Made by a program: the position numbers and the translations under genes. Below the pieces are notes generated by a model, which ran no database searches, had not been told where the DNA came from, and saw only the letters and a program-made list of their open reading frames with translations. Positions 22,139 through 46,115 of a stretch of DNA of 64,000 bases are shown here, piece after piece. Within the stretch, counting starts at the first letter, position 1; the number at the start of each line of letters is the position of its first letter. The stretch is from positions 1-64,000 of IMG/VR virus record IMGVR_UViG_2576861110_000002; one strand, 5' to 3'. The stretch comes from an uncultured virus (IMG/VR IMGVR_UViG_2576861110_000002). Its lineage: Duplodnaviria > Heunggongvirae > Uroviricota > Caudoviricetes.

Positions 22139-22212
22139 GTCTAGGAACTCATCATAAATTCATAGTTAGTAAGTTGCAAAAATGCTCTATATCAGTATGG
22201 GGCATTTTTGTT

Positions 22213-24501
22213 ATGGCAAATTCAAATCACAATGATACAGTTTTATCCTATGACGAGCTCGGCTTTATCATTGGAATGAAACGAGTTGAAAAAAAAGTTA
22301 GTACGATTGATTCAAACATTGAAAAGATCATTGGTATCCTTACTCAAAGCTTTGAAGAGCAAAAAGCACAATTTGCACAGCCTCAGCCTAAACTGACTGA
22401 ATTTCAAAAGATGCTTAATGCTGTCAATAATAGACAAGCTTTAGATTTTGAAGATTTATTAAAAGACAAAGCTAATCCAATCACTCAATCTTTTGTTGTA
22501 GCAGACAAGCTGGTCAAAGACTTTGCTGATGTTTTGGACCAATCAATTAATGACCTTAAAACAGTAGATAAAAAACAAATCAACAAATCTAATGGGCGAA
22601 AGCCCGCTATAGAAATTAATAGTCATGATGACTTATCAAAAATTGTAAATCCTAGTGTACCAGAGCGTGACGAAAAAGGCCGTTTTGTATCAAACCCTAA
22701 TGAACCCCAAAACCAATCATCAATTCGTAAAGTTGCCCAAACGATATCTACGGCGATTAAAGGAGTAATGCCGAACTCAACACAAGGTGTAGATCCTACA
22801 GTTGACGCAATCAATGAAGTTGGTCATTTACTTTCACCTGTACGCCGTGCAGCAGGATTAGCTTTGCGGCCATTAACTGGATTGATGCGTAGTAAAAAGA
22901 GAAATGAGCCATTACCTCGTGAACAAGAGAACCATAACCGCAAACAAATAAAGTTATTGCAGCGTATTGCCGATAATTTGGCGTCTAAGGGTGGTTTGTT
23001 AGGTTCTCTAGGGAAATTGCTTACTTCCGTGTTATCTGCTGGTGGTGGGCTTCTAGGTGGTGCTCTAGGCAAAGGAAAGAAAGGTGTAGGGAAATTAGGA
23101 AAGGGCTTAGGTAAATTTCTTAAGTTTGGCCGTGGTCTACCCGTAATAGGTGCATTGGCTGCTGGTGCATCATTATTAGATTGGAATGAACAAAGCACAC
23201 AAGAAAAAGGCGGTACTGTTGGTAGTCTTGCGGGTGGAGTAATTGGTGGTACTGTCGGGTCTTTATTTGGTCCAGTTGGAACATTAATTGGTGGTATGGC
23301 TGGTTCTTGGATTGGGAATAAGCTAGGTACCGTAGTTGCGCCGTATTTTAAAGAGTGGACAGATTCATTAATTGCTGCAGATGTACCAGGTATTATTAAT
23401 ACTGCTTGGAAAGGGTTTGTTAACTATGCAACCAATGCTTTTGAACTGACAAAAGGTACAGCATCAAAAGTTGTAGACGGTGTTAAAGATACTGCTAGTG
23501 ATACCTTAGATTTCATTAAGGATAAATTTAATCGCTTTAATCCATTTCATGACGGCGTTCCCACATGGGGCATTGGGCAAGGAGTTTATAAGCCGGGTTT
23601 TGGAGCAAATAAAAATGTACCTGCTTATGGATCAACTATTTCTCCAATTGGTGAAAAAACTAAGGAAAAGCAACTTGCAGTTTACAATGCTATGAAGAAA
23701 GCAGGTTTTAATGATAATTGGGCTGCTGGTTTAACTGCTTCCGTTGGTCGAGAAAATGATTATCGAGATGAATACTTGTTTGGTAAACATCAAGATAAAG
23801 CTGGTGGAATAAATATGGGAATGATTTCTTGGCAAGGAGCTCGTAAAGACCGGCTTACGGCATATATGAAGGAAAGGGGATTACTTGATGCAAACGGTAA
23901 TATGGTACGGAGCCAAGCAGCTTTAGATGCACAAGGTGCATTTATGAAGCATGAAATCGAAACGAATCCAGAATATGCTTCAGTTAAAGCTTATATGCAG
24001 AAAAACCCAAATGCATCAAAAGAAGATATTGCCCGAGTTCTCGGCACAAAATATGTAAGATGGGCGTATGGGCAAACAAAGCTTCGCAATGGGAAGTCAT
24101 TTGATTATAGACCGCATTTAGAAAAGGAATATAAATACAGAGCTAACATTGATAAAACCGTTCAGGAACAGAAAACTAATCTACCTAAAGAAAATACCCC
24201 AACTGTATCAGATTTGAAATCAAGTCATATTGTGGAAAATACAAGAGCTAAAGTTGCTAGTGTTTTAAGCACCCAAAAAGCTATCGTTCCCCAAGCTACT
24301 ACAAAAGCAAAACCTTCATTAAATAATCAAAATAGATTATTAACTAATGTCACGCCGTTTAAGCAACCTTTAAATACTCCTAACCCACAGGAAGTCGTTG
24401 TTGTTAATGGTAATAATGGTAATATCAGTCAGAATGTAAATGATAGATTCCTAGCACATGCTTTAACTGGTGGGATAGGAATGGGAAACTTAGAAGGTTA
24501 G
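22213..24501 (+). CDS. Tape-measure/injection protein with phage tail lysozyme domain (P1 Sit-like role)
   Basis: Gly-rich hydrophobic segments; AAGLTASVGREN...GMISWQGARKDRL lysozyme-like motif; ATG 22213 preferred over TTG 22174. Confidence 0.75.
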   Translation: MANSNHNDTVLSYDELGFIIGMKRVEKKVSTIDSNIEKIIGILTQSFEEQKAQFAQPQPKLTEFQKMLNAVNNRQALDFEDLLKDKANPITQSFVVADKLVKDFADVLDQSINDLKTVDKKQINKSNGRKPAIEINSHDDLSKIVNPSVPERDEKGRFVSNPNEPQNQSSIRKVAQTISTAIKGVMPNSTQGVDPTVDAINEVGHLLSPVRRAAGLALRPLTGLMRSKKRNEPLPREQENHNRKQIKLLQRIADNLASKGGLLGSLGKLLTSVLSAGGGLLGGALGKGKKGVGKLGKGLGKFLKFGRGLPVIGALAAGASLLDWNEQSTQEKGGTVGSLAGGVIGGTVGSLFGPVGTLIGGMAGSWIGNKLGTVVAPYFKEWTDSLIAADVPGIINTAWKGFVNYATNAFELTKGTASKVVDGVKDTASDTLDFIKDKFNRFNPFHDGVPTWGIGQGVYKPGFGANKNVPAYGSTISPIGEKTKEKQLAVYNAMKKAGFNDNWAAGLTASVGRENDYRDEYLFGKHQDKAGGINMGMISWQGARKDRLTAYMKERGLLDANGNMVRSQAALDAQGAFMKHEIETNPEYASVKAYMQKNPNASKEDIARVLGTKYVRWAYGQTKLRNGKSFDYRPHLEKEYKYRANIDKTVQEQKTNLPKENTPTVSDLKSSHIVENTRAKVASVLSTQKAIVPQATTKAKPSLNNQNRLLTNVTPFKQPLNTPNPQEVVVVNGNNGNISQNVNDRFLAHALTGGIGMGNLEG

Positions 24502-25568: not shown

Positions 25569-26522
25569 ATGGAGTTATTGATGAAAAATTACACTGTTCT
25601 CGTTAAAGTTACTGAATCTAAATCACTTTTTAGAAAAAATGTGTATGAAGCAACTTTATTTGAACACCCAAAAGTCACAATAACAGGATCAAGCTATGAG
25701 GAAGCCGTAAGTAAGATTCAAGAAAAAATCATGGAGTATTTTGATTTCTTGAGTGATCGCGGTGAAGATATTCCTGAACCGGCTGAAATGACAGCGGTCA
25801 TGTTTAAAAATCGTGACAAAGATGTGTTTTTTCACGTTGTAAGTATTGATACATCTGTTTATAGCGAAAAAACAGAAAAAATTAATGTAACAATGCCGAT
25901 CTCTTTAACAAGAAAAATTGACGATTTTTTAAAAGATAAAGTTCATAATTCAAATCTTTTTTCATCAAGATCTGATTTCATTACTAAAGCATGTAAACAG
26001 TACTTACCATATGCTCAAAATTTAGCTGCAATTTTTAATAATGAGAAAAGTTTTTCTGCTTTGAGGTACAAAGAGAGTAATACAACTGATAATTGTTGTA
26101 ACCTTTTACAGTATCTAAATAATTCTTACGGTGAAGAAGTTATTCTCTTTGCAACGCATCGTACACCAAGCCACGGTTATAGTCATGACGATGGACCCGA
26201 GACAAATTTGCCGCTATTAGGGGCGATAGTAAAACTTAATTTACCTGCTTTACGTGACACATATATTATTTTCGATGGATTATTCTTAACTGCACAAAGA
26301 AAGCCTAGATATAATGAGGTAAAAGAAGTTCTCGATACTGCTGTATTAACAAATAAAACAAGTTTTATTCGACATGCTGTCCCATTTACATCTCAATTAG
26401 ACCCTGCCGAGGCTATAAGTCTGTTAGGAGAGTTTCCGCGTAATAAATTAACAGAAGATTCGAGACCGGAATTTTTCAATTTATTGAGTAATATTTCAGA
26501 AGCGCAATATCAAAATTATTAA
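25569..26522 (+). CDS. HicB-family antitoxin domain + RHH fused to an unknown ~170-aa C-terminal domain
   Basis: TITGSSYEEAVSKIQE...DRGEDIPEP (HicB) and EKINVTMPISLTRKID...SRSDFITKA (RHH). Confidence 0.75.
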   Translation: MELLMKNYTVLVKVTESKSLFRKNVYEATLFEHPKVTITGSSYEEAVSKIQEKIMEYFDFLSDRGEDIPEPAEMTAVMFKNRDKDVFFHVVSIDTSVYSEKTEKINVTMPISLTRKIDDFLKDKVHNSNLFSSRSDFITKACKQYLPYAQNLAAIFNNEKSFSALRYKESNTTDNCCNLLQYLNNSYGEEVILFATHRTPSHGYSHDDGPETNLPLLGAIVKLNLPALRDTYIIFDGLFLTAQRKPRYNEVKEVLDTAVLTNKTSFIRHAVPFTSQLDPAEAISLLGEFPRNKLTEDSRPEFFNLLSNISEAQYQNY

Positions 26523-26584
26523 TCAAAAAAAAGCCTCGCTCCCTGGAAAGAATACGAGGCTTGTCATCACTTAGGAGTAACAAC

Positions 26585-26881
26585 ATGAGTACTTTAACAC
26601 AATTTAATAGGCCTTTGGAAAACCCTATTATTGAATCAATTGATAAACAGTTCTTTGACTTATTAGGTGGTGAAGAACCCCATGGACGCCAATGTTATTG
26701 GGTGGTAATTGAAAACGGAGAGGCGGGAGTTCAGCAATTACCTGCACATTTTGCTCCAACAAATGTTGTACAACTTTCAGATGCTTTCAATTCACTACGT
26801 GAAGTTTTTGTTGCAGGAGAAATTTTGGAGCATGCAAGAGCTTTGAAAAAAATTCCATTTAAAATGAAGAAGAATAGTTAA
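26585..26881 (+). CDS. Hypothetical protein
   Basis: SD AGGAG before ATG 26585; followed by a terminator at ~26930-26957. Confidence 0.6.
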   Translation: MSTLTQFNRPLENPIIESIDKQFFDLLGGEEPHGRQCYWVVIENGEAGVQQLPAHFAPTNVVQLSDAFNSLREVFVAGEILEHARALKKIPFKMKKNS

Positions 26882-27079
26882 TAAGGGAATATTACTTTAA
26901 TAGTTTCTAAAATGAACCTCCCTTAATTTAAAAGCCAGCAATTAAGCTGGCTTTTTTAAATTTAATGACAAATATAAAATTCTTAATTTAATTGATATTT
27001 CCAATGTAATTGATCATATAGTTCTTGAAAAATATTATTCATAAATGCATAATTCGCGCGCGTTTTAAGGATTATGTTA

Positions 27080-27787
27080 ATGACAACAACAGCTTATGAT
27101 ACTCATTTCATGGCTTCCGACATAGCCTTTACAGTAAATCGTACAGAAGTTACTCTAAATATTCCTTTTAGGAAAGTGAAACGTTTGGGCGATATTGTAT
27201 TTGGTATGGCTGGATGTTTATTTTGTATGAGAGATTTTAGCGAGGCCCTTATTGATTTTATCTTACAAAATAAAACACAATTTGAGCTTCCGATATCTAT
27301 ACTTGAAAAAACTAGCAGCGATTTTATTGCATTGATCTACTTAAGTGGTTCTTGCCTTAAAGTTTCAAAAATGGTAAACCACACAGAGTTTACAATAGAA
27401 AACATTACTAATGTTCCTACTGTAATCGGTTCTGGGAGTTTACATACTCAACATATTATTCAAGATTGCCCTAATGCGATAGCTGTTGTTCTAGAAGCTA
27501 TTAAATATGATCAATATACTGCAGGGGAAGTTAAATATTGCAGTATTAAACGAGAAGAAGTTCATAATTTGGAAGCGCCTATCATGTCTACAACTCTTAA
27601 TAATCAAATACAAATGTTGCAAACAGAGATTGCTGAAACAAATCAACTTGTTGGAAATGGCAATACTTATCACGCTAATACTGAAACATACCATCATGGT
27701 GAACCAGTCAAAATTTCTACTGAATTAGGTTTACAAATGTTTCAACACAGTTTAACGAACGTCCGAAATAAATTAACTACTAATTAA
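27080..27787 (+). CDS. Ntn-hydrolase, proteasome-beta/HslV-like threonine protease
   Basis: M-TTTAY N-terminus, MASD, RK, FGMAG, IGSG, D-QY-TAGEV; SD TAAGGA 8 nt before ATG 27080; promoter TTGAAA-17-CATAAT (27025-27053). Confidence 0.7.
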   Translation: MTTTAYDTHFMASDIAFTVNRTEVTLNIPFRKVKRLGDIVFGMAGCLFCMRDFSEALIDFILQNKTQFELPISILEKTSSDFIALIYLSGSCLKVSKMVNHTEFTIENITNVPTVIGSGSLHTQHIIQDCPNAIAVVLEAIKYDQYTAGEVKYCSIKREEVHNLEAPIMSTTLNNQIQMLQTEIAETNQLVGNGNTYHANTETYHHGEPVKISTELGLQMFQHSLTNVRNKLTTN

Positions 27788-27795
27788 TTTTAAGT

Positions 27796-27825
27796 AAAAA
27801 ACCTGCATATGCAGGTTTTTACTTT
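27796..27825 (+). terminator. Intrinsic terminator
   Basis: AAAAACCTGC-ATAT-GCAGGTTTTT. Confidence 0.8.
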
Positions 27826-27912
27826 TAAAGGTTATGAAAATTAATGGAACTTACTTAATTCTCAGAATAAATTTACTTAGAAGATAACCTCATTGATATG
27901 AGGTTATTTTTC

Positions 27913-28854
27913 ATGGGCAGTCTTAATCTTGCAGCTATAACAGCTACTTCTCCATACATTAAAAAGATCCAATCGGCATTAGAAAAAGCAACAGGCCAAA
28001 CGATTGTTACACCAGAATTTCGCAAAATTAAGCGCGTTGCTGGTGTTAGCGTTTTACCAGTTGCATTTTTCTTTTCTGGTGGCGCTACGCTTACACTTTA
28101 TATTCGTGCATTAGCGGATGTAGTGAAGGCCGAACTGAATGATAAAGTAATTGTTCTATCTGGCGATTTTAGTGATGACTATAAGCCAACATTTGAAAAC
28201 GCCGTAAGTTGTGTTGCTAAACTTATCCGTGAAGCACAATCTAAAATCCAAGAACAAAATAAGCGTGAAAAAGTTAGCTTACCGCCGCGCCGTACTTCTG
28301 TAGATCAGAAAATTAAAGAAGTCGAAGAACAAGAGCAAAAGCTTGATGAGGATTTAGCTAAGCAAATAGCTCACCGTGACCAGCTGAAAGAACAAATTGA
28401 ACATGCTAAGCAACAACTTGGTATAAGTTCGGAGGCTGGTCAATCCGAACTGGGAAAGCCTGAATTTGATAGTGCGAGTCCAATCAAATCAGTTACAGCA
28501 AATATCACACGTGGTAAAGCTGCAATGAACAAAGCCATTATGGAAAAAACCACAGTGCATAGAGCTATGTATCGTAATGATCTAGGCTGGGTGGATTTTG
28601 AGTATGGCAGTGATAAACAGGGCATTAAGCATATTATCAAGCGCCGTATGGAAAGTGATGGCATGACATATGATGAAGTTGTGCATATGCTTGTGGATAC
28701 TATTGTGCAAACAATCGCTCAAGGTAGTACACAACGGCGTACAGAACGTGGATTATCTACAAGAATAAATATTGTATTTAATTCGCATGAAGCGTCATTG
28801 ATTAAGCGAGAAGGTAGTAATGCATGGCTGCTTACAGCTTTTGAAGTGCATTAA
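27913..28854 (+). CDS. DarA-N/Hdf-like head-associated protein fused to a PBECR (barnase/ColE5/RelE-fold) nuclease-like domain
   Basis: N-terminal KIKRVAGVSVLPV.FFFSGG...DVVKAELNDK (DarA_N-like), coiled coil, C-terminal LGWVDFEYG..KQGIKHII...WLLTAFE (PBECR1-like). Confidence 0.65.
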   Translation: MGSLNLAAITATSPYIKKIQSALEKATGQTIVTPEFRKIKRVAGVSVLPVAFFFSGGATLTLYIRALADVVKAELNDKVIVLSGDFSDDYKPTFENAVSCVAKLIREAQSKIQEQNKREKVSLPPRRTSVDQKIKEVEEQEQKLDEDLAKQIAHRDQLKEQIEHAKQQLGISSEAGQSELGKPEFDSASPIKSVTANITRGKAAMNKAIMEKTTVHRAMYRNDLGWVDFEYGSDKQGIKHIIKRRMESDGMTYDEVVHMLVDTIVQTIAQGSTQRRTERGLSTRINIVFNSHEASLIKREGSNAWLLTAFEVH

Positions 28855-28945
28855 AAAAAGCCCGGTAGTTAGAGATGGGTTGCGACATCTTCTAACCTAC
28901 ACTTATGACCCTATACGTTCTCGTGTCATAAGTGGAGCGGGCTTT
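28853..28945 (-). ncRNA. Candidate structured ~93-nt RNA convergent on the DarA-N/PBECR gene
   Basis: Minus-strand TTGAAA(28980-28975)-17-TATTAT(28957-28952); closing stem AAAGCCCG/CGGGCTTT enclosing two hairpins; U7 tail. Confidence 0.55.
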
Positions 28946-29053
28946 GTATATATAATAATCCATGCATTTCTTATTTTCAAATATGGAACCATTCACGCTT
29001 ACATATATACAAAAGCAATACCCTTAATATAGTTCTTATTAAGGGTGTTTTTT

Positions 29054-29410
29054 ATGCAAATTCAAATCGGTATTGATATTGTCTTAATTCTTGCATTTTT
29101 AGCTTATCTTTCCGTTGTTACAGGATGGAATAGCAAGAATAAAGCTGCGTATATTAAACAATTCCGTCATGTGCCTATAAGCCTCTTATTTAAAGAAATC
29201 AGATATATGTATTTCATAAGTATGGCATGTGTATTGATCACTATTATTCTTGTTGATTGGCGAATCTATAACGTTGCTTCATATTTTGATGCATTAAGCG
29301 TTTCATTATGGATATTCATAATCTATTTCACCATTTTTTCAACTTACCAGATCGGCACTGCAATACTAGTAAAGCTTTTGATGATTTTCAGTAATAGAGC
29401 AACTTCCTAA
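29054..29410 (+). CDS. Small three-TM membrane protein
   Basis: Three hydrophobic segments; first gene after a GGAAC element. Confidence 0.65.
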   Translation: MQIQIGIDIVLILAFLAYLSVVTGWNSKNKAAYIKQFRHVPISLLFKEIRYMYFISMACVLITIILVDWRIYNVASYFDALSVSLWIFIIYFTIFSTYQIGTAILVKLLMIFSNRATS

Positions 29411-29748
29411 TGATCACATCTAAAACAATTTTAGACATGGTTGAGTACTGGCTTAATCATCCGGTTAATGGGAAGTATGGTTCTGACTTTGGTGCACCTC
29501 TTTATGATTTGCTAATGGCACCTTTAGACTCGAGGGTGGCAGATAGTTTTCTTATTAAGATGAAAAAGGATCTACCAATATTATCTGAGCTTAACTCTGA
29601 CCAATTAGCCCTGTATTCACAAACCGAAGGATTTGAGACGGTTCATATTCATTTAAGCATCATGAATGTGAATATAGATCTTAACCAAGTAGCAGACCGA
29701 TTGGGTAAATCAGTAACAGGTGAGACATATGACATTAACGCAAGCTGA
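29410..29748 (+). CDS. Baseplate wedge gp25/W-like protein
   Basis: GKYGSDFGAPLYDLL motif; directly upstream of a baseplate J-like gene. Confidence 0.6.
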   Translation: MITSKTILDMVEYWLNHPVNGKYGSDFGAPLYDLLMAPLDSRVADSFLIKMKKDLPILSELNSDQLALYSQTEGFETVHIHLSIMNVNIDLNQVADRLGKSVTGETYDINAS

Positions 29749-31174
29749 TTTTGAAGCCCAGCTCCAAGCAGCGATAGATGATTATGAGATTCAGGAACGC
29801 TATAAAGCTCAAGATCCACTTGTCGTTCACCAGCTGCGTTCTATGGCTAGTTTTTTGACTGCATTTGGTCCAGAAATCGATATTGCTTCAATTGAACCAT
29901 TTACCAAAACACGTGACCGCTCAATTATTGCGGATGCTACAAATAAAGGCATTTTGCCTATAGGTACACCGTGTCAGCACTTAATAGAAATTATCAACCG
30001 GTCAACAAATGCTGTGAGCTTAAGTCAAGGGCGAATGATTGAGGACCATAGCGGCGGTAGAGTATGGCGGTTGCTTCAATCAATTACTGTTAAAGCTGGT
30101 GAGACGGCGGAAGTAATAGCAGAACAAAGTGAATACCGTGAAATTAAATATGTTGTACCAGTTACTGAAGGGTTCCATAAATATCGAATAGACCTTTTAG
30201 AGGACCTTTCACTTGCAAATATTTCGGTTAAGCAGGGCAATAATAACTATGTAATTAAGCCGCGCTGGATGAATGTTGAACCAGGTGAATATGCTGTAAC
30301 TGTTACTACAGATAATCTAAGAAGATTGTTTATTGAGTTTGGCGATTCTGAGAGAGCTGGTCGTACTCTGCAAGCCAATGAAACTGTAATAATTGGAATT
30401 CTTGAGACATACGGGGAAGTTGATGTTAATCGTTTAAAAGATGCGGCCTTACTTGATGTACTTACTAATGATGAACAGCGGGTATCAGTGCGTTTTAAAG
30501 CTGGTGGACTGATTAGAGAGGGCGTAGATCCGTTAGCTGTATCAGAATTACGTTTATTATCAAGCTATCCATCACTTTACGATGAAGATGCGGTATTTCT
30601 CGGCAACTTTGACTATGCAGTCCGTAAAAAATTTATGAAACGGGCACAGTTTATTTCTGTCTGGAATGAAACGTTGCAAGAGCAACACTTTGCCATTACA
30701 TACCGCGACATAAATCATTTAAATCTTGTGGTGGTTGCGAAGAACCCAGCTGAACAAGCAACGTTAGAACAAGATATCTGTCGGTATATTGGTTATTGCG
30801 ATAACTTGTATGAAGGTAAAGTGAATGTACATGAAGTAGTTGAAAAGCCAATTGAAGTAAAAATTAAAGGCTCTTTGGCTTCTGTACATAACACTGATAT
30901 GGTTAAGACACAGATCAAAGAATTACTTGTAGAACGATACGGGCGTGAATCATTGAGCTCAAGTCGATGGCTGGTTAATGGCTTTAATACGCAAGAAATG
31001 GGGAAGCTGATTAATGACAATATTGTGGCTTTCCAAGACCGGATGAGTGACTTTACCATTATGCTTTCAAATGAGTTGAATAAGCCTAATGAGTGGGTGT
31101 ATGTGACAAAAGACAGCATTACTGTTGAGTTGGAACGCACCGCTGATATTTCGGGGGCTACATGGACCCTATAA
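29729..31174 (+). CDS. Baseplate J-like wedge protein (P1 BplA-like)
   Basis: Size, IEFGD motif, GVDPLAVSELR and synteny. Confidence 0.65.
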   Translation: MTLTQADFEAQLQAAIDDYEIQERYKAQDPLVVHQLRSMASFLTAFGPEIDIASIEPFTKTRDRSIIADATNKGILPIGTPCQHLIEIINRSTNAVSLSQGRMIEDHSGGRVWRLLQSITVKAGETAEVIAEQSEYREIKYVVPVTEGFHKYRIDLLEDLSLANISVKQGNNNYVIKPRWMNVEPGEYAVTVTTDNLRRLFIEFGDSERAGRTLQANETVIIGILETYGEVDVNRLKDAALLDVLTNDEQRVSVRFKAGGLIREGVDPLAVSELRLLSSYPSLYDEDAVFLGNFDYAVRKKFMKRAQFISVWNETLQEQHFAITYRDINHLNLVVVAKNPAEQATLEQDICRYIGYCDNLYEGKVNVHEVVEKPIEVKIKGSLASVHNTDMVKTQIKELLVERYGRESLSSSRWLVNGFNTQEMGKLINDNIVAFQDRMSDFTIMLSNELNKPNEWVYVTKDSITVELERTADISGATWTL

Positions 31175-31776: not shown

Positions 31777-31854
31777 TTCAATTGGAACTGTTGAGTTAGC
31801 GCTCAAATACAAAATGATTTCATAGTCCTGTTCATTAGTTCAGGACTTTTTTAT

Positions 31855-32552: not shown

Positions 32553-32624
32553 TTTGGAACTGATTAAATTTCAACTGTAGAACAACTGAAACAATAGCCT
32601 CAATCACAGCATTGGGGCTTTTTT

Positions 32625-33530
32625 ATGGCTAGCAAAAATAGAAAGACAAAAGTTCTATCTTACAACTTACATGATCGATGCCGTAAATTTACCGGTGTTG
32701 ATCGAAGTAATGTCGATGTAGATGCAATGGTCAACTTGATCAACAGTGACCATGTACAAGAAATGGTTGCTACTAATTCATTACAAGGTTTTTATGGTCA
32801 TCAAATTCGACAGCGCTATGGTATGGTGCCGCCTGAAACGGTGATCATTAAAGGTAAAGTTGTATATCTTTCACGGGCGTTTAAAACAATTGAATTACGT
32901 GCTTCAAAGGATGGAACAGTTGAACACCGAGAAGAGTTTTATGATAACGAGCCTGGTGAGATCGCATTACAAGATTATAAAGCCCAAGCGGGTGGTTTTA
33001 GCACATCAGTCAATTACAAGAATGTCGGTGGCCGTTTAATTCCAACGGGTTTTTTTGGTTTTGATTTCGTTGCACAACCAAATTATGCAAGTAATGTAGG
33101 GGATGGTCAGTTATTTGATGGATTATTTGTTCCTGAAGAGCCAGAAGGTGTTGTTTCTTGCTTTGATAGCGCAACAGATATTTCACAGTTATCACAACCT
33201 GAAATTATTATTGCCCAATTACTTGAAGATCAAATCTTACAGACCTACGACAATATCAATAGCCAACTTCAACTTTTAAATGAGTTAGGAAATGCTCAAG
33301 GCTTAGTAGGTGAACTCTCAGAAAAAGTTGATAAACAGAAACGCCTGCAACAACTTAGAGAAGAACGCAAAAAAGAACTCTATACGGGTTTGGTAAATCC
33401 GGTGAAGAGCTTTGATTCAGTTCAACAACATGCTGAACAAATTCTGCAATCCATGGATCAGCCAAGTGTAAAAGAAAAAGCTAAAAAGCCGAAAAAGTCT
33501 TTTGGCAGTATCTTTAGTGTATGGGGGTAA
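32625..33530 (+). CDS. Prohead protease/head processing protein (P1 Pro-like)
   Basis: GFYGHQIR, GTVEHREEF..NEPG, AGGFS, FGFDFVAQPNY. Confidence 0.7.
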   Translation: MASKNRKTKVLSYNLHDRCRKFTGVDRSNVDVDAMVNLINSDHVQEMVATNSLQGFYGHQIRQRYGMVPPETVIIKGKVVYLSRAFKTIELRASKDGTVEHREEFYDNEPGEIALQDYKAQAGGFSTSVNYKNVGGRLIPTGFFGFDFVAQPNYASNVGDGQLFDGLFVPEEPEGVVSCFDSATDISQLSQPEIIIAQLLEDQILQTYDNINSQLQLLNELGNAQGLVGELSEKVDKQKRLQQLREERKKELYTGLVNPVKSFDSVQQHAEQILQSMDQPSVKEKAKKPKKSFGSIFSVWG

Positions 33531-35072: not shown

Positions 35073-37064
35073 ATGGCTTTGGCACCATTAAAAGAAATTC
35101 CCGAATGGTGGGAACTTTGTGAGCGTTATCGATACGACATCTATGCTTTCGCCGTAGAAGCATTAGGTGTCGAACCCACATGGCAACAAGAATTACTTTT
35201 TGAATCTATTGCATTTGATGGTAGCCGTACTTCAGTAGCATCGGGGCATGGTTGCTTTGGTAAAGGGACTTTAATCAAATTAGCCAATGGGGAATTTATC
35301 CCAGTTGAGCGTATTAATCTAAATCATAAAATTCTTGCTGCAGATGGTAAGACAGAACTAGATGTAATTAAAACAGTAACCGGTTATCAGGAAATGTTCC
35401 GGTTTGAATATGAGAATGGTAAAGCTCATACATTCAATAAATCACATATTCTTTGCTTAATTTCTTTATACGATGGTAACGGGTGGTCAAAGGGCGACAA
35501 GATTGAATTGCTTGTTTCTCAATATATGAACCTTAAACCTGAAAGTAGGGAACAGTTTGCATCTTATAGGCTTATAGATGGGGAACATAAGCCTTTAAAA
35601 ATTACATCGGTTACTGAGCTAGGTGAAGGTAAATATTACGGTTTTGTACTCGATCCAGATCCATTTTTCTTAGGTGAAGATAACTTAGTACTACATAACA
35701 CTGGTAAAACGGCCAGTGCCGGTATTGTTGCCTTATGGCATCTCCTGTTTTTTGATGAATCCATCATGATGTTTACTGCTCCGCAGATTGGGCAGTTAAA
35801 GAAACAAGTGTGGAAAGAAATCAGTATCAATCTAGCACGATTGAAGCAAGGGCCTTTGGCTTGGCTTGCTGATTATGTTGGGTACCAATCTGAACTTGTA
35901 TACATCAAAGGCTACAAAGAAAAATGGTATGTCTTTGCGAAGACAGCACCAAAACATCAACCTACAAACTTAGCGGGTAACCACGGCGATAACTACATGG
36001 TCTGGGTCGATGAGGCCAGTGGTGTAGATGATGCCGTACTTGATGTAGCATTTGGTGCATTAACGCACGAAGACAACCGTGCAGTAATGACCTCTCAGCC
36101 TACCCGTAACGCGGGGATGTTCTATGAAACTCATCACAAGTTAAGTCATCGAGCAGGTGGGGTATGGATTGCTCTCACATTTAATGGTGAAGAGTCACCA
36201 CTAGTTAGTAAGCAGTCCTTAGAAGAACAACGGCAAAAATACGGAAGCAGGGAAGATGCCCAGTATAAGATTCGTGTTCTAGGTGAATTCCCAGACTTAT
36301 CAGACGAGTTCTTAATTACCAAGCGTCAAACTGAAGAAATGTATGTTGGCGCCAGTATTTTTGATGACCATCAATTCGGTTATGTCATTACGGTTGACGT
36401 TGGTGGTGGTGTCGGCCGTGACGATTCAGTAATTGTTATTTCTAAAGTTTGGGGTGAATCGCAATGGGGAGAGCGCGCACGCCGTGTAGAAGTTGTAGAT
36501 ATTCCATTATGCAAAAACAGAGATGATATCTTAGAACTATTTGCAAAGATTAATGAGCTACTTTTACAGTACCCAAATGCTAACTTAGTTGTAGATGATA
36601 ACGGGGCGGGTAAAGGTTTAGGCCAATACCTTAAAAAGCAAGGTATTTTCTACGTTCCTGTTTATTGGGGCTCACAATGTTTTAGTAATGACAATAGAAA
36701 AGAGTTTACAAATAAACGGTCATTAGCTTATGTGGGCTTAGCTCGAGCAATCGCAAGTGGCCGTTTTAAAATAAAAACGAAGAAACACCATGTGAAAATT
36801 AAAGATCAGTTAATCCACGTTCCATACCGTTTTGATGACTTTGCTCGTTATAAAATCTTAAGCAAAGACGAAATGAAACGGATGGGAATTAAATCACCGG
36901 ATATTGGTGATGCTTTTGCCTTCTTATTCTTAGAAAACGTTCACTACACTGAAGCTTACGAAACTGTAAATGTCACTGACGATACACCAGAAGGCCGTGA
37001 ACAAGCTGAACGTAAGTCAAGATTCAGTGCTTTAAGAGAAGCAGCTGAAAAAGAAAATGATTAG
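35073..37064 (+). CDS. Terminase large subunit (P1 PacB-like) containing an intein
   Basis: Q motif PTWQQ, Walker A SGHG/TGKT, Walker B VWVDEA, RVLGEFP, TVDVGG, SPDIGDA. Confidence 0.92.
   Translation: MALAPLKEIPEWWELCERYRYDIYAFAVEALGVEPTWQQELLFESIAFDGSRTSVASGHGCFGKGTLIKLANGEFIPVERINLNHKILAADGKTELDVIKTVTGYQEMFRFEYENGKAHTFNKSHILCLISLYDGNGWSKGDKIELLVSQYMNLKPESREQFASYRLIDGEHKPLKITSVTELGEGKYYGFVLDPDPFFLGEDNLVLHNTGKTASAGIVALWHLLFFDESIMMFTAPQIGQLKKQVWKEISINLARLKQGPLAWLADYVGYQSELVYIKGYKEKWYVFAKTAPKHQPTNLAGNHGDNYMVWVDEASGVDDAVLDVAFGALTHEDNRAVMTSQPTRNAGMFYETHHKLSHRAGGVWIALTFNGEESPLVSKQSLEEQRQKYGSREDAQYKIRVLGEFPDLSDEFLITKRQTEEMYVGASIFDDHQFGYVITVDVGGGVGRDDSVIVISKVWGESQWGERARRVEVVDIPLCKNRDDILELFAKINELLLQYPNANLVVDDNGAGKGLGQYLKKQGIFYVPVYWGSQCFSNDNRKEFTNKRSLAYVGLARAIASGRFKIKTKKHHVKIKDQLIHVPYRFDDFARYKILSKDEMKRMGIKSPDIGDAFAFLFLENVHYTEAYETVNVTDDTPEGREQAERKSRFSALREAAEKEND
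35253..35699 (+). mobile_element. Mini-intein (149 aa, no homing endonuclease) in the terminase Walker A
   Basis: Starts CFGKGT, block B TFNKSH, ends YYGFVL...LVLHN followed by Thr; removal restores SGHGTGKT. Confidence 0.93.
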
Positions 37065-37136
37065 TTATATGGAACTGCCCACTTAAATACCTATTCTTCA
37101 TAACTACCATAGATCAATAAATCATATGGGTGGGTT

Positions 37137-41154: not shown

Positions 41155-42933
41155 ATGACTGTGTTATCAGAAGAAATTCGTAAAAAGTATGAGGCTCAAC
41201 AAATTGCTACAGCTCAGTGCCGAAATTACTATTTCAAAAGTCCTGATGAGCTTGAAAATGGGTTTGACAGTGCACAAACAGCGGCAGAAGAGTACCCAGA
41301 AGTATTAAAAGCAATTTTTGATTCAATTGGCATCGAATATGCGCCAGAAGTTGATAAAGCTGTGATGTTTGGGGTATCACAATATCAAGCACGCCATGGG
41401 GGTGAATTACCGCATCCTTCAATCATTGCAGCTGCGTTAACTGCTGGTTTAAGTGGTGCTAAACAAGCTGGTTCTTTGCCAACTGATACTATTAGCTATT
41501 ATGACAGTATTAATGAATCTGGATTTGATGATGTAAATCATCAGCATCATGAATCTGTAAGTATCGTCCCAGCGATTACTGTAGCAACCATTGCAAACGT
41601 TATCGCTTATGCAACGCCAATTGTCGCAATGATTCCAAATTCTAATGGATCAAATGAAGTTCCGTTAGTATCTATTCGTTTTGTCACCAATCGTGATTTT
41701 GGTGCAATGAAGAAATCAGAATACTTAGACGGTGCAAATGCCTCAAAGCCATATGTAGAGGGCCGTTTACGTTTTGCATTGTCAAATGGTGGTGCAGGTA
41801 CAACTTACTCAGTAGTAGCACGAACCGGTTATGAAGATTTCAAGGCTAAAACCCCTGATGTAAATGCTAAGTTGCTTCCATTCATTGCTGGTAATGTATC
41901 AATCAAAATCAACGGTAAAGAAGTCGCGCATACTCGAAACCGTAGTAAATCAAAATTTTCTGGCAAGATTTCCGCTATCGCTGAAAAAAACGTATTTGTA
42001 AACGGCGTAGAGTATCGTGTTGTTGGTAGTGAAATTGACCTTAATGCTAGCAAAATTAGCGTGACTTTAAATGAAGCTTTACCTGCTGGTGCTAAAGTTG
42101 AAGTTCATCTTGTCGCTGATTTTGATGCGCGTGATGGTAATGGTAACTTCTTAATGACGCCTGTTGGTGTTGATTTTGAACCTGAATATGAAAATTTGGT
42201 GGCTTCACCAATTATGGCACAGGTTACAGCGGCCACCTTATTGCAGACTCAGTTGAATAATGAACTCAAACTCGGCTTCTTAGGTCAAGCTTTAGCAATT
42301 ATTCAAGGTAAAGTTTTCTTGGAGCAAACGGTCCGTCTTTTAGGTGAAGCAAAAGATTTAGCTGAATACTCAGGCCACGAAATTACTTTTGATGCTTCTC
42401 GTGGTGTAACTGGTAAATTGGCAGCTGCGTTTAATACCACTGGTGATCTGTTTGGCGAAGTAATGAAGTTCATTTCGGCTGCAAAAATGGATATTAATCA
42501 GCGTACTGGTGGTTCTACTGTTGCATACGATTTGTATGTTGGGGATAGTGGTGCAGTATTCTTTAACCAACTTTCTAGCGATAAGATGCCGACAAAAACT
42601 GGGTACTCTGCTGGTTATGGTCAAATTGTCCGTATTGGTACTCTTGCAGATGGTACAAACGTTTACCACGCACCGACAGCACAAGAGCTTGTAGCTGAAG
42701 CAGATACAGCGTTTGATCTGCTTTTAGTTGGTCGTGGTAATGAGCCAATTCGTGCGCCGTTCGTTGGCTTTATTCAAACGCCTCTTTCAGTTATTGAAAC
42801 TCGACCAGATGCGCGTGAATCAGTACTTACTTTAATCGGTGCTCAAGCAGCCGAAATGAACCCGTTAGAACGTTATGCTGATCAAAGCTATGTCATCCAC
42901 TGTATCAATATGCCATCTCTTAAAAAATCGTAA
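41155..42933 (+). CDS. Major capsid protein (P1 gp23-like)
   Basis: 592 aa, own late element, high-expression codon usage, N-terminal propeptide-like region, terminator after (42945-42970). Confidence 0.7.
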   Translation: MTVLSEEIRKKYEAQQIATAQCRNYYFKSPDELENGFDSAQTAAEEYPEVLKAIFDSIGIEYAPEVDKAVMFGVSQYQARHGGELPHPSIIAAALTAGLSGAKQAGSLPTDTISYYDSINESGFDDVNHQHHESVSIVPAITVATIANVIAYATPIVAMIPNSNGSNEVPLVSIRFVTNRDFGAMKKSEYLDGANASKPYVEGRLRFALSNGGAGTTYSVVARTGYEDFKAKTPDVNAKLLPFIAGNVSIKINGKEVAHTRNRSKSKFSGKISAIAEKNVFVNGVEYRVVGSEIDLNASKISVTLNEALPAGAKVEVHLVADFDARDGNGNFLMTPVGVDFEPEYENLVASPIMAQVTAATLLQTQLNNELKLGFLGQALAIIQGKVFLEQTVRLLGEAKDLAEYSGHEITFDASRGVTGKLAAAFNTTGDLFGEVMKFISAAKMDINQRTGGSTVAYDLYVGDSGAVFFNQLSSDKMPTKTGYSAGYGQIVRIGTLADGTNVYHAPTAQELVAEADTAFDLLLVGRGNEPIRAPFVGFIQTPLSVIETRPDARESVLTLIGAQAAEMNPLERYADQSYVIHCINMPSLKKS

Positions 42934-45347: not shown

Positions 45348-46115
45348 ATGAATCCATTTGGCCCAACTACAGAAAAACCTTTAGCTTTACGTGCTTTTGA
45401 TTCAGCAGCGGAGAATATTTCTACCGTTGTAAGTAAGGTTTCAAGTACTGATCGAGAACAGCAATCTGTGATTGAACAAGTACGACAAATTGCTCTGAAC
45501 ATTCTATCTGATACGGTAGATACAATCAGTGAAGGTAAGCTTGAAGAAGGTGAACTGGGCGTTGATCATTTAGACGCATTAATTGTCGATGCATTAGATG
45601 GTGCAGATGATGAAGACGGTATCTATGAAAACGCTTTGATGGCGTCTCTTTCCGATGCTTTCTTAACATTTGGCGTTGACGCTACTGATATTGAAGAGAT
45701 CTTTAGTGATGATACAGAAGTTGCTGATGCGGCGTTAGAAGCAGCAGCCAATACAGTTCTTGCTAATATGCCAGACGAAGGCCCTGAACTTGAAGAACTG
45801 GTTCGTGAGTTTATTTTCGGTGAAGCAGATGAAACTGAAGAAGGTTTCGATTCAATGGCTAAAAAAATTAAAGCTCGAAATGGAGCATTTAGCCAACGGA
45901 AAGTAAATGGGCGAAAAATTCACTACCGTGGTGTGCTGGCTATTCGTCAAGGTGTCAAAACCGTTGTGAATAAACGATTACCTGGTCAAAAGGTCCGTTT
46001 AACTGCAGCACAAAAAGCTGGTATGAAAAAAGCTCGACTTCATGCTTTTACTGCAAATGCAATCAACAAGCGTTTACGTTCATTCAAAAAAGGTAAACGC
46101 TTAGGTATTTACTAA
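45348..46115 (+). CDS. Acidic/basic virion protein
   Basis: Very acidic core and very basic C-terminus separated by GFDS. Confidence 0.6.
   Translation: MNPFGPTTEKPLALRAFDSAAENISTVVSKVSSTDREQQSVIEQVRQIALNILSDTVDTISEGKLEEGELGVDHLDALIVDALDGADDEDGIYENALMASLSDAFLTFGVDATDIEEIFSDDTEVADAALEAAANTVLANMPDEGPELEELVREFIFGEADETEEGFDSMAKKIKARNGAFSQRKVNGRKIHYRGVLAIRQGVKTVVNKRLPGQKVRLTAAQKAGMKKARLHAFTANAINKRLRSFKKGKRLGIY

Follow-up and report, generated by a model that had tools for sequence, protein, structure and literature searches.

The proteins that a phage injects do their work ahead of all phage gene expression, and to our knowledge few of them have been described, almost none outside T4, P1, N4 and P22. 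In T4, the internal proteins and Alt carry a capsid-targeting sequence that gp21 cuts at Leu/Ile-x-Glu. Here, we analyze a 313-residue protein (P0001) encoded in a 64,000-nucleotide stretch of an uncultured tailed virus (hereafter the window, positions 1 to 64,000 of the 78,862-bp IMG/VR provirus record IMGVR_UViG_2576861110_000002), in which a complete homologue of the P1 head protein Hdf is fused to a PBECR1 domain. In P1, cryo-electron microscopy (cryo-EM; PMC12810830) places 55 DarA-Hdf pairs at penton-hexon junctions, where they line the inside of the capsid. The pairs touch the DNA and are secured by a parallel bundle to which both proteins contribute their helix domains. It is through its helix that Hdf binds the capsid and DarA, the number of Hdf copies cited is about 400 per virion, residues 1-69 of DarA are missing and supposed to be removed by the protease Pro, and the pairs are gone from heads after DNA ejection (PMC12810830).

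DarA-N and PBECR1 were both defined in the polyvalent-protein catalogue of Iyer et al. 2017 (PMC5512222), in whose sense P0001 is a minimal phage 'polyvalent protein' and where the exact Hdf-PBECR1 architecture may already be drawn. Along with the two domains, the catalogue and the present locus have in common the idea of a late-encoded, packaged and injected effector, and the alternative cargos found here (ADP-ribosyltransferase (ART)-like, phosphoribosyltransferase (PRTase)-like and LPD3) belong to the same domain set; the two-domain form here, however, does without the zincin metallopeptidase proposed for processing in PMC5512222, and this task would fall instead to a prohead protease acting at a short motif. 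MuF polymorphic toxins (PMC5576092, a paper in which DarA and Hdf go unmentioned) similarly combine a conserved head-associated N-terminal module with swappable C-terminal toxin-like domains and presumed delivery with the DNA, but the anchor here is Hdf/DarA_N, with no Phage_Mu_F among 14 Pfam matches at E up to 1, and whereas a small immunity open reading frame (ORF) follows most MuF toxins, none that is convincing follows the PBECR1 allele; a small ORF does come after the ART-like allele. T4 internal proteins and Alt, the latter paralleled by the ART-like cargo, are, as proposed for P0001, prohead-loaded enzymes that the prohead protease trims after an acidic residue and that are injected, although targeting here would be by a folded 170-residue protein rather than a 10-20-residue leader, and the motif is Phe-Asp-Ser. 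In its proposed mode of action P0001 works like a MuF toxin or a T4 internal protein, and it is a member of neither family.

P1 is a further close parallel: the homology of residues 1-170 extends over all of Hdf, alpha/beta domain and helix, and the genome has DarA-like, DdrB-ParB, Pro-like and gp23-like genes; the inner-capsid location and exit with the DNA visible by cryo-EM in P1 (PMC12810830) would be expected here too. P1 Hdf, in contrast, is a solo, unprocessed, enzyme-free protein of 203 amino acids (aa), to which a cleavable-looking linker and PBECR1 have been added here, and the gene is not part of a darA operon but neighbors baseplate genes, with the DarA-like gene about 36 kb away. 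We propose that the fusion protein is packaged in the head, cut at an FDS site in its linker and injected, to act as an RNase in the new host, a proposal whose chances we put slightly above even. What is new is the recognition of the anchor as a complete Hdf, of an exchangeable cargo slot behind it, and of a candidate rule for P1-Pro-type proteases.

Architecture of the fusion protein

A sequence-only reading of this DNA had described one ORF in which a DarA-N capsid-targeting domain and a coiled coil are joined, through a linker with an FDS site, to a PBECR1-like nuclease. The ORF is present as that reading gave it (27913-28854, + strand, 313 aa), and so are the strings it named: GKPEFDSASP at residues 181-190, FDS at 185-187 (nucleotides (nt) 28465-28473), GIKHII at 237-242 and WLLTAFE at 305-311. 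The ATG is preceded, at 9 nt, by a GAGG Shine-Dalgarno sequence; a second possible start, the ATG at 27898, is unused in most homologues. The full-length AF2 model (mean pLDDT, the predicted score in a local distance difference test, 79) lays the protein out as an alpha/beta domain (1-118), a short loop, a helix (129-168), a disordered stretch (172-191, pLDDT ~40) and a BECR domain, which correspond to the following features.

27913-28854, + strand: coding sequence of the Hdf-like/PBECR1 fusion protein P0001, 313 aa (ORF call, Pfam, PHROG)
27913-28266, + strand: alpha/beta DarA_N/Hdf N-domain, residues 1-118, with D69 and N76-x-K78 (AF2 model, VIA, conserved columns)
28297-28416, + strand: long helix, residues 129-168, equivalent of the P1 Hdf helix and putatively capsid- and DarA-binding here too (hhalign)
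28426-28485, + strand: disordered linker, residues 172-191, with SSEAGQSELGKPEFDSASPI (pLDDT <50; relatives diverge after ELGK)
28465-28473, + strand: F185-D186-S187, candidate prohead-protease site with a putative cut at D186/S187 (motif recurrence, P1 analogue)
28492-28851, + strand: PBECR1 (BECR-fold) RNase-like domain, residues 194-313, with K239-H240, R245 and T308 (Pfam, invariant residues, domain model)

The named relative closest to the window is the temperate Acinetobacter baumannii myovirus vB_AbaM_ABMM1, with 97% identity over window positions 27881-30000 and unrelated sequence upstream of 27881. Its gp77, the orthologue of P0001 (97% identical), is annotated as a 'tetratricopeptide repeat protein', a name that none of the searches made supports.

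The N-terminal module is a complete Hdf

Residues 1-170 are a complete Hdf homologue, helix included. PHROG 1620 ('Hdf-like antirestriction'), which P1 Hdf matches end to end (E 6.5e-80), matches P0001 over residues 5-179 (E 3e-29, 175/200 profile positions), and hhalign of a 36-sequence family alignment against P1 Hdf pairs residues 17-168 with P1 residues 23-177, again with the helix domain included (97% probability, E 1e-10). Against PDB sequences, the family profile retrieved 9ukm_H 'Hdf' (E 3e-8) and 9ukm_I 'DarA' (E 9e-8), followed by a next match at E 0.37. The two best Foldseek matches of the P0001 model in the PDB are P1 head entries (E 7.5e-5 and 1.3e-4), and VIA assigned Z 10.9 and 9.9 to P1 head chains over model residues 3-174, with an unrelated fold next at 6.6; the score of 10.9 belongs to residues 70-287 of the P1 DarA chain 9ukm_I, with 160 residues aligned. 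Hence the structural match to DarA_N/Hdf that the sequence-only reading had anticipated is reached by Foldseek, VIA and the family profile alike. D69 and N76 are at least 90% conserved among the 36 Hdf-like sequences, and, with P0001 reading N76-D77-K78, D69 and N76-x-K78 match the conserved Asp and N-x-basic motif that are hallmarks of DarA-N (PMC5512222). Because profile, hhalign and fold matches all continue through the helix, residues 1-170 represent a whole Hdf and not a DarA_N domain with a coiled coil of other origin attached; the proposed Hdf/DarA_N fold holds, while the separate coiled coil has to be given up, since helix 129-168 belongs to the Hdf module.

Only one Hdf-like gene is present in this provirus, and the same holds for every one of 30 related proviruses (those on contigs of 65 kb or more, out of 78 loci located with the DarA-like protein), so any Hdf role in this head must fall to the fusion protein.

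P1-type head machinery in the same genome

The genome encodes a P1-type head set comprising the capsid protein, a Pro-like protease, a DarA-like protein and DdrB-ParB, of which the first two lie in the window.

41155-42933, + strand: major capsid protein, 592 aa, P1 gp23 homologue (PHROG 1014, hhalign, motif conservation)
32625-33530, + strand: P1 Pro homologue, 301 aa, presumed processing enzyme (PHROGs 4727/30560/1801 in common with P1 Pro; BLASTP E 2e-19)

The capsid protein is 25% identical to the annotated major capsid protein of Xanthomonas phage Rb1; tblastn against the P1 record returned nothing at E up to 10, and homology to gp23 was recovered by PHROG 1014 and hhalign (96%, E 4e-9). 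Just past the window, after the portal gene, lies the gene for a 650-aa DarA-like protein (genome 64450-66402; Pfam DarA_N E 1e-21), directly followed by that for the DdrB-ParB protein (genome 66402-67853, E 2e-35).

Directly upstream of the fusion gene is an HslV-family peptidase gene (27074-27787; PHROG 1040 E 6e-61, no Pfam match). Its product was considered as the processing enzyme but is not favored: this slot is variable, with the peptidase gene in only 13/30 related proviruses and other genes in ABMM1, while FDS and the fusion gene are kept. The P1 Pro homologue is the better processing candidate.

An exchangeable cargo slot

Relatives are 70-88% identical up to …GQSELGK and divergent thereafter, revealing an exchangeable cargo slot on the Hdf anchor at one locus. 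Across the 30 related proviruses, the cargo of the lone Hdf-like gene is PBECR1 in 25 (95-100% identity), a second domain in 4 and a third in 1. The second cargo, of ~250 residues, is carried by three proteins of 438 aa and one truncated at 311 aa. It resembles ADP-ribosyltransferases on the sole basis of a language-model look-alike score of 0.96 (ADPrib_exo_Tox clusters), with no Pfam match, and a small ORF follows this allele. In the third form, a 463-aa protein, FDS and a W-D-E-N-E-H-P-R…G-K-F stretch precede a domain with a sub-threshold phosphoribosyltransferase match (E 0.04); both of these cargo identities are leads. Other Hdf-like relatives carry a Zeta toxin (P0117, E 8e-22) or LPD3 (P0137, P0140, P0144). 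An Acinetobacter pittii homologue (P0003), 95% identical up to about residue 262 and unrelated in sequence beyond, looks to have a frameshifted and probably inactive PBECR1 domain. Cargo swapping at one locus marks an arms-race hotspot within an otherwise conserved structural module, in a prophage family that is common in Acinetobacter.

The FDS motif in head proteins

The FDS of P0001 is kept in 22/22 PBECR1-type relatives with a gene start found, and its placement in the proteins of this genome is not random. All 10 FDS tripeptides lie in the late region, and 7 of them fall within four proteins (Hdf-like, Pro-like, capsid and DarA-like) that make up 7.5% of residues (binomial 1e-6, post hoc). 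The capsid protein has FDS at 37 and 55, YDS at 116 and FDD at 124, in the N-terminal propeptide, the DarA-like protein has FDS at 22 and 72 and FDA at 98 upstream of its DarA_N domain, and the Pro-like protease has FDS at 180 and 263, in the tail behind its catalytic domain. At least two [FYLM]D[SA] motifs occur in the first 150 residues of 61/62 capsid proteins (the query and 61 homologues of 98-33% identity), the sole exception, P0095, reading FDN; in an alignment of 29 sequences, F37 and D38 never change while the flanks vary. FDS also occurs at 17 and 167 of a 255-aa late protein (45348-46115; PHROG 1053, of unknown function), the second where the acidic body gives way to a C-terminal tail that is strongly basic; this protein looks like a processed internal head protein.

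Scanning 1.84 billion cluster representatives with the Hdf module (residues 1-176) gave 72 matches, among them 43 solo proteins (150-215 aa) and 15 longer ones with an N-terminal Hdf module; the repeat proteins P0125 and P0151 were dropped as spurious. Together with P0001, the longer proteins make 16 cargo-bearing Hdf-likes, and in the zone from -10 to +60 of the Hdf match end [FLMY]D[SA] occurs in 10/16 (shuffle mean 2.2; 0/5000 shuffles reach 10) and [FL]DS in 9/16 (shuffle mean 0.56; 0/5000 reach 9), counts that are indicative only, because the generalized expression was widened after the capsid data had been seen. Solo Hdf-likes contain FDS anywhere in only 3/43.

The P1 capsid protein gp23 is cut between E120 and S121 (PMC9024508), within the sequence …AMLE/SV. 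FDS does not occur in P1, where a chemically equivalent hydrophobic-Glu-Ser/Ala is present instead (P1 regions inspected for [FLM]-Glu-Ser: L004 19014-20033, 27904-29823 and 29825-30436; L005 1462-3189). P1 Pro has 4 [FLM]ES (shuffle mean 0.27; 1/10,000 shuffles reach 4), two of them behind the protease domain like the FDS tail of the Acinetobacter enzyme. Residues 67-69 of P1 DarA read LLE, then A, adjoining residue 70, the first one in the cryo-EM map, and the motif is missing from P1 Hdf, the unprocessed protein. [FLM]-Glu-Ser is thus a possible recognition rule of the P1 head protease, and since the P1 hydrophobic-Glu/Ser sites include the mapped cut, we read Phe-Asp/Ser as the Pro cleavage site of this lineage. 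FDS as a head-protease site, which the sequence-only reading had suggested, is therefore strengthened as a conserved motif of this family's head proteins, but it fits the mapped P1 Glu/Ser site only as an Asp/Ser analogue. If true, Phe-Asp/Ser would provide the first sequence rule for P1-Pro-type head proteases, make processed head proteins and packaged effectors predictable from sequence, and explain why P1 Hdf stays intact.

The C-terminal PBECR1 domain

Residues 194-313 are a PBECR1 domain with a BECR-toxin fold, which would be expected to act as an RNase. As had been proposed, the domain is recognized by Pfam PBECR1 (PF18809) well over its gathering cut-off (45.9 bits vs 27.6, E 9e-12; residues 218-311, profile positions 1-99 of 104), with His240 and Thr308 kept. 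In an alignment of P0001 with 7 homologues of 42-55% identity, N197, R200, K212, H216, R217, W226, D228, H240, R245, S302, N303 and W305 are invariant in 8/8 sequences, and position 308 is Thr in 7/8 and Ser in 1/8. H240 lies within helix 238-249 of the model, and together with T308 it fits the active-site configuration of five of the six PBECR families, a His in the N-terminal helix plus a C-terminal Thr/Ser (PMC5512222). K239-H240 corresponds to the Lys-His pair noted for colicin-like BECR enzymes (bioRxiv 10.64898/2026.08.28.747851).

A domain-only AlphaFold model (pLDDT 91.8) shows a helix and then a four- to five-stranded sheet. When this model was compared with 48,161 chains without a Foldseek prefilter, 24 of the first 25 rows were, by title, CdiA-CT, colicin D or RelE/ParE/YoeB-type toxins, in line with the BECR-fold match that the sequence-only reading had looked for. 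The best match was the CdiA-CT tRNase 7m5f_C (Z 6.4, root-mean-square deviation 4.3, 94 aligned), and other top matches were CdiA-CT 6cp9_A (Z 5.5) and 7vmc_B (Z 5.2) and colicin D (Z 5.0), along with BrnT and RelE; with no Z of 8 or above, the search backs the fold class of the domain, not its function. Colicin D and CdiA-CT tRNases are thus the best fold matches for residues 194-313 and share the His-in-helix style of active site, but Z is only 5-6.4 and identity 5-11%, and the present protein has no convincing immunity partner and no secretion or translocation domains. The PBECR1 profile found no relative among PDB sequences (best E 0.25, a splicing factor), a homologue search with residues 187-313 alone found only 2 near-identical proteins, and the searched literature containing 'PBECR' reported no experiment on any PBECR1 protein.

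The close homologues P0027, P0030 and P0031 have PBECR1 fused N-terminally to a prohead protease of the Pro-like type (phrog_30560 E 1e-79). In P0024 and P0025, it is preceded by a W-x-E-x-x-H-P/K-R…G-x-F stretch, which we take to be one found in MuF-type and polyvalent proteins. Fold matches in BFVD are mainly large multi-domain viral proteins, one of them titled 'internal head protein', and fusions of PBECR to MuF and to portal have been described (PMC5512222). Fusion to prohead protease, MuF and portal provides independent pointers to the head interior.

Expression signals

Three further features precede the gene.

27797-27821, + strand: hairpin plus T-run after the HslV-like gene, closing the preceding transcription unit (read from sequence)
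27845-27850, + strand: TGGAAC late-gene element, 67-68 nt before the ATG, a putative promoter (recurrence, conservation)
27884-27907, + strand: leader hairpin with a 10-bp stem, plus U-run, with the GAGG Shine-Dalgarno in the 3' arm (RNA fold)

GGAAC resembles the -35 element of extracytoplasmic-function (ECF) sigma promoters. When 18 intergenic gaps >40 nt were examined, 10 late genes proved to have TGGAAC (or GGAAC) 59-78 nt upstream, among them those for protease, capsid, sheath, tube, portal and DarA-like protein, and the window has 40 TGGAAC against 28.3 expected (0/100 shuffles reach 40). The distance of 67-68 nt is kept in ABMM1 although the flank is unrelated, and in 27/27 related loci with a start found (30 examined), whatever the cargo or the upstream neighbor. 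The GGAAC late element noted earlier is therefore real, recurrent and conserved, and late transcription would follow from it. Relatives retain the leader hairpin (-17.6 kcal/mol, z -2.98), its stem being altered in L086 and L108, and similar hairpins precede three other late genes. The gene thus looks like a self-contained late unit.

A common compact leader, consisting of TGGAAC, a spacer of ~30 nt and a hairpin plus U-run ending 1-5 nt before the start codon, with the Shine-Dalgarno in the hairpin's 3' arm, recurs at 27845-27912, 28984-29053, 31783-31854 and 32555-32624, and also at 37070, 41076, 43960, 49032 and 62117; it resembles a terminator between promoter and gene, or a 5'-terminal stabilizer. 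No sigma factor or late activator was found by Pfam among 18 early/middle ORFs scanned, a sigma-70 promoter scan gave fewer sites than shuffles (9 vs 11.4), and Rfam over 26500-29800 gave nothing above threshold and 3 sub-threshold, chance-level matches.

Proposed mechanism and alternative explanations

We infer the following course of events. The fusion protein, the phage's only Hdf homologue plus a passenger domain, would be expressed late from its own TGGAAC-type unit. By analogy with P1, its N-terminal 170 residues would pair with the DarA-like protein and line the inner capsid face, thereby taking the PBECR1 domain into the procapsid. There, the P1-Pro-type protease (32625-33530) would probably cut the linker at D186/S187, leaving a free 127-residue RNase-like protein in the head, and at infection both pieces would exit with the DNA, as the P1 Dar proteins do. 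In the new cell, a colicin-D-like, metal-independent endoRNase, with His240 as general acid/base and with Thr308 and Arg245, may cleave some RNA, likely for early host shut-off or counter-defense. Such a packaged, released and injected effector is what the sequence-only reading had proposed; it is the best reading of the evidence and is supported in part. P0001 would then be a compact, testable injected effector that combines an anchor known by homology with a putative site of release and an RNase-like warhead of small size, and its fusion occurs in 25/30 of the related proviruses examined.

More tentatively, Hdf-likes could be a general load-and-release vehicle of P1-type heads, made up of an anchor, a hydrophobic-acidic/Ser Pro site (Phe-Asp/Ser in Acinetobacter phages, Leu/Phe-Glu/Ser in P1) and a swappable enzyme warhead (RNase, ADP-ribosyltransferase, phosphoribosyltransferase or Zeta kinase), with the same motif used to take apart the propeptide of the capsid protein, the tail of the protease and the N-terminus of DarA. 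Head maturation and the arming of effectors, in tens to hundreds of copies per virion, would then both obey a single protease code, an idea that we regard as possible but less likely than not.

Several observations weigh against packaging, cleavage and injection as set out above. The anchor is related to P1 Hdf visibly only at the profile and fold level, since BLASTP of P0001 against P1 Hdf gave no match, and Pfam DarA_N (PF18788) scores a sub-threshold 14.6 bits against a threshold of 27, with a relative of 56% identity to P0001 (P0022) above it at 33.7 bits. FDS is only mildly enriched genome-wide (10 in 24,734 residues vs 4.3 expected; 67/5000 shuffles reach 10; rank 81 of 6230 tripeptides), the motif expression was broadened post hoc, and 6/16 cargo junctions lack the motif, including that of the ART-like cargo of the same locus and those of the LPD3 forms. 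The Z-scores of the BECR fold are modest. In an LC-MS/MS study of the ABMM1 virion, which reported 2 structural and 4 hypothetical proteins, 'Gp77' is not named in one supplement (PMC10345192). Furthermore, the sequence-only reading took both P1 proteins to be packaged and processed; this is right for the N-terminal trimming of DarA, but P1 Hdf is not proteolytically processed (PMC12810830). With Hdf uncut and DarA cut at its N-terminus, release of a C-terminal cargo would be new and without P1 precedent.

The intact state of P1 Hdf also favors the strongest competing explanation, in which the protein is packaged and injected uncut, FDS and its relatives serve to dock or target proteins inside the head (by binding shell, protease or portal) instead of being cut, and the RNase-like domain works tethered to the Hdf/DarA/DNA complex. 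In hhalign of the capsid proteins, the mapped P1 cut aligns, with low confidence, with HHE/SV, 8 residues past the last FD[DS], so the cleaved bond may be an E/S downstream and the motif an exosite; this too counts against a cut at D186/S187. FDA lies 6 residues from the N-terminus in P0030 and P0031, where little would be gained by cutting, and no class of head-internal protein lacks the motif, as would befit a shared address label. In cargo-bearing Hdf-likes, however, the motif falls right at the join of anchor and cargo, within a disordered linker, it is rare in solo Hdf-likes, and a label would be redundant on a protein that already bears the Hdf anchor. The P1 analogue, hydrophobic-Glu/Ser, moreover includes a site proven to be cut. 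Taken together, we consider uncut docking unlikely.

Alternatively, P0001 might be mainly a structural Hdf, serving head-size control, Dar recruitment and DNA shielding, with a catalytically dead PBECR1 as an RNA- or DNA-binding appendage, a role proposed for the MuF-C domain of phage Mu (PMC5512222). As the only Hdf-like protein of the genome, P0001 must hold the structural role in any case, and an inactive PBECR has been described in Mu gp30 (PMC5512222). Features of the domain itself speak for this and against an active RNase: P0001 has Lys243 where 7/7 other PBECR1 sequences have Glu, a loop of 12-13 residues is deleted relative to them, and no convincing immunity gene is found among the ORFs downstream of the PBECR1 allele. 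Only a 70-aa ORF (28820-29032) comes into question; it has no family match and overlaps both the gene end and the next gene's promoter. The His in its helix, the C-terminal Thr/Ser, R245, H216 and R217 are all kept, however, K239-H240 matches the colicin-like Lys-His pair (bioRxiv 10.64898/2026.08.28.747851), and the alternative cargos are enzyme-like (ART-like, PRTase-like, Zeta toxin), favoring an effector slot, which together make a dead domain improbable in our view.

For mRNA turnover late in the producing cell, T4 RegB is a precedent. That P0001 acts there, on host or early phage mRNA, or as a prophage toxin for abortive infection or exclusion, without being virion-borne, is very unlikely: PBECR domains do occur as solo phage proteins (PMC5512222; P0028 and P0029 here) and the gene adjoins a variable, moron-like slot with HicB-like, anti-repressor-like and HslV-like genes, but P0001 has a complete Hdf anchor and a TGGAAC late-type unit common to head and tail genes, PBECR1 homologues are fused to prohead protease, and no antitoxin-like partner was found.

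Neighboring genes

Downstream of the fusion gene, ABMM1 annotates a 196-aa gp78 over window 28820-29410, which an in-frame stop splits in this window; a promoter-like element, a leader hairpin and a PHROG match favor a 118-aa membrane protein starting at 29054. In the variable slot upstream, a 317-aa protein (25569-26522) contains a HicB-like antitoxin domain (Pfam E 4e-17); no HicA-like partner was seen nearby, and the ABMM1 counterpart is annotated as a toxin. Further upstream, 22174-24501 encodes a 775-aa protein with a phage tail lysozyme domain, which, like the PBECR1 domain, matches the 4846-position PHROG 19273; this, too, is probably an injected protein of several domains, like the Acinetobacter ones that PMC5512222 mentions. 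In the large terminase (35073-37064, 663 aa), an N-terminal extension gives a Hint/homing-endonuclease-associated match below threshold (E 1e-6, 29.3 vs 32.1 bits) and may be an intein or an intein remnant.

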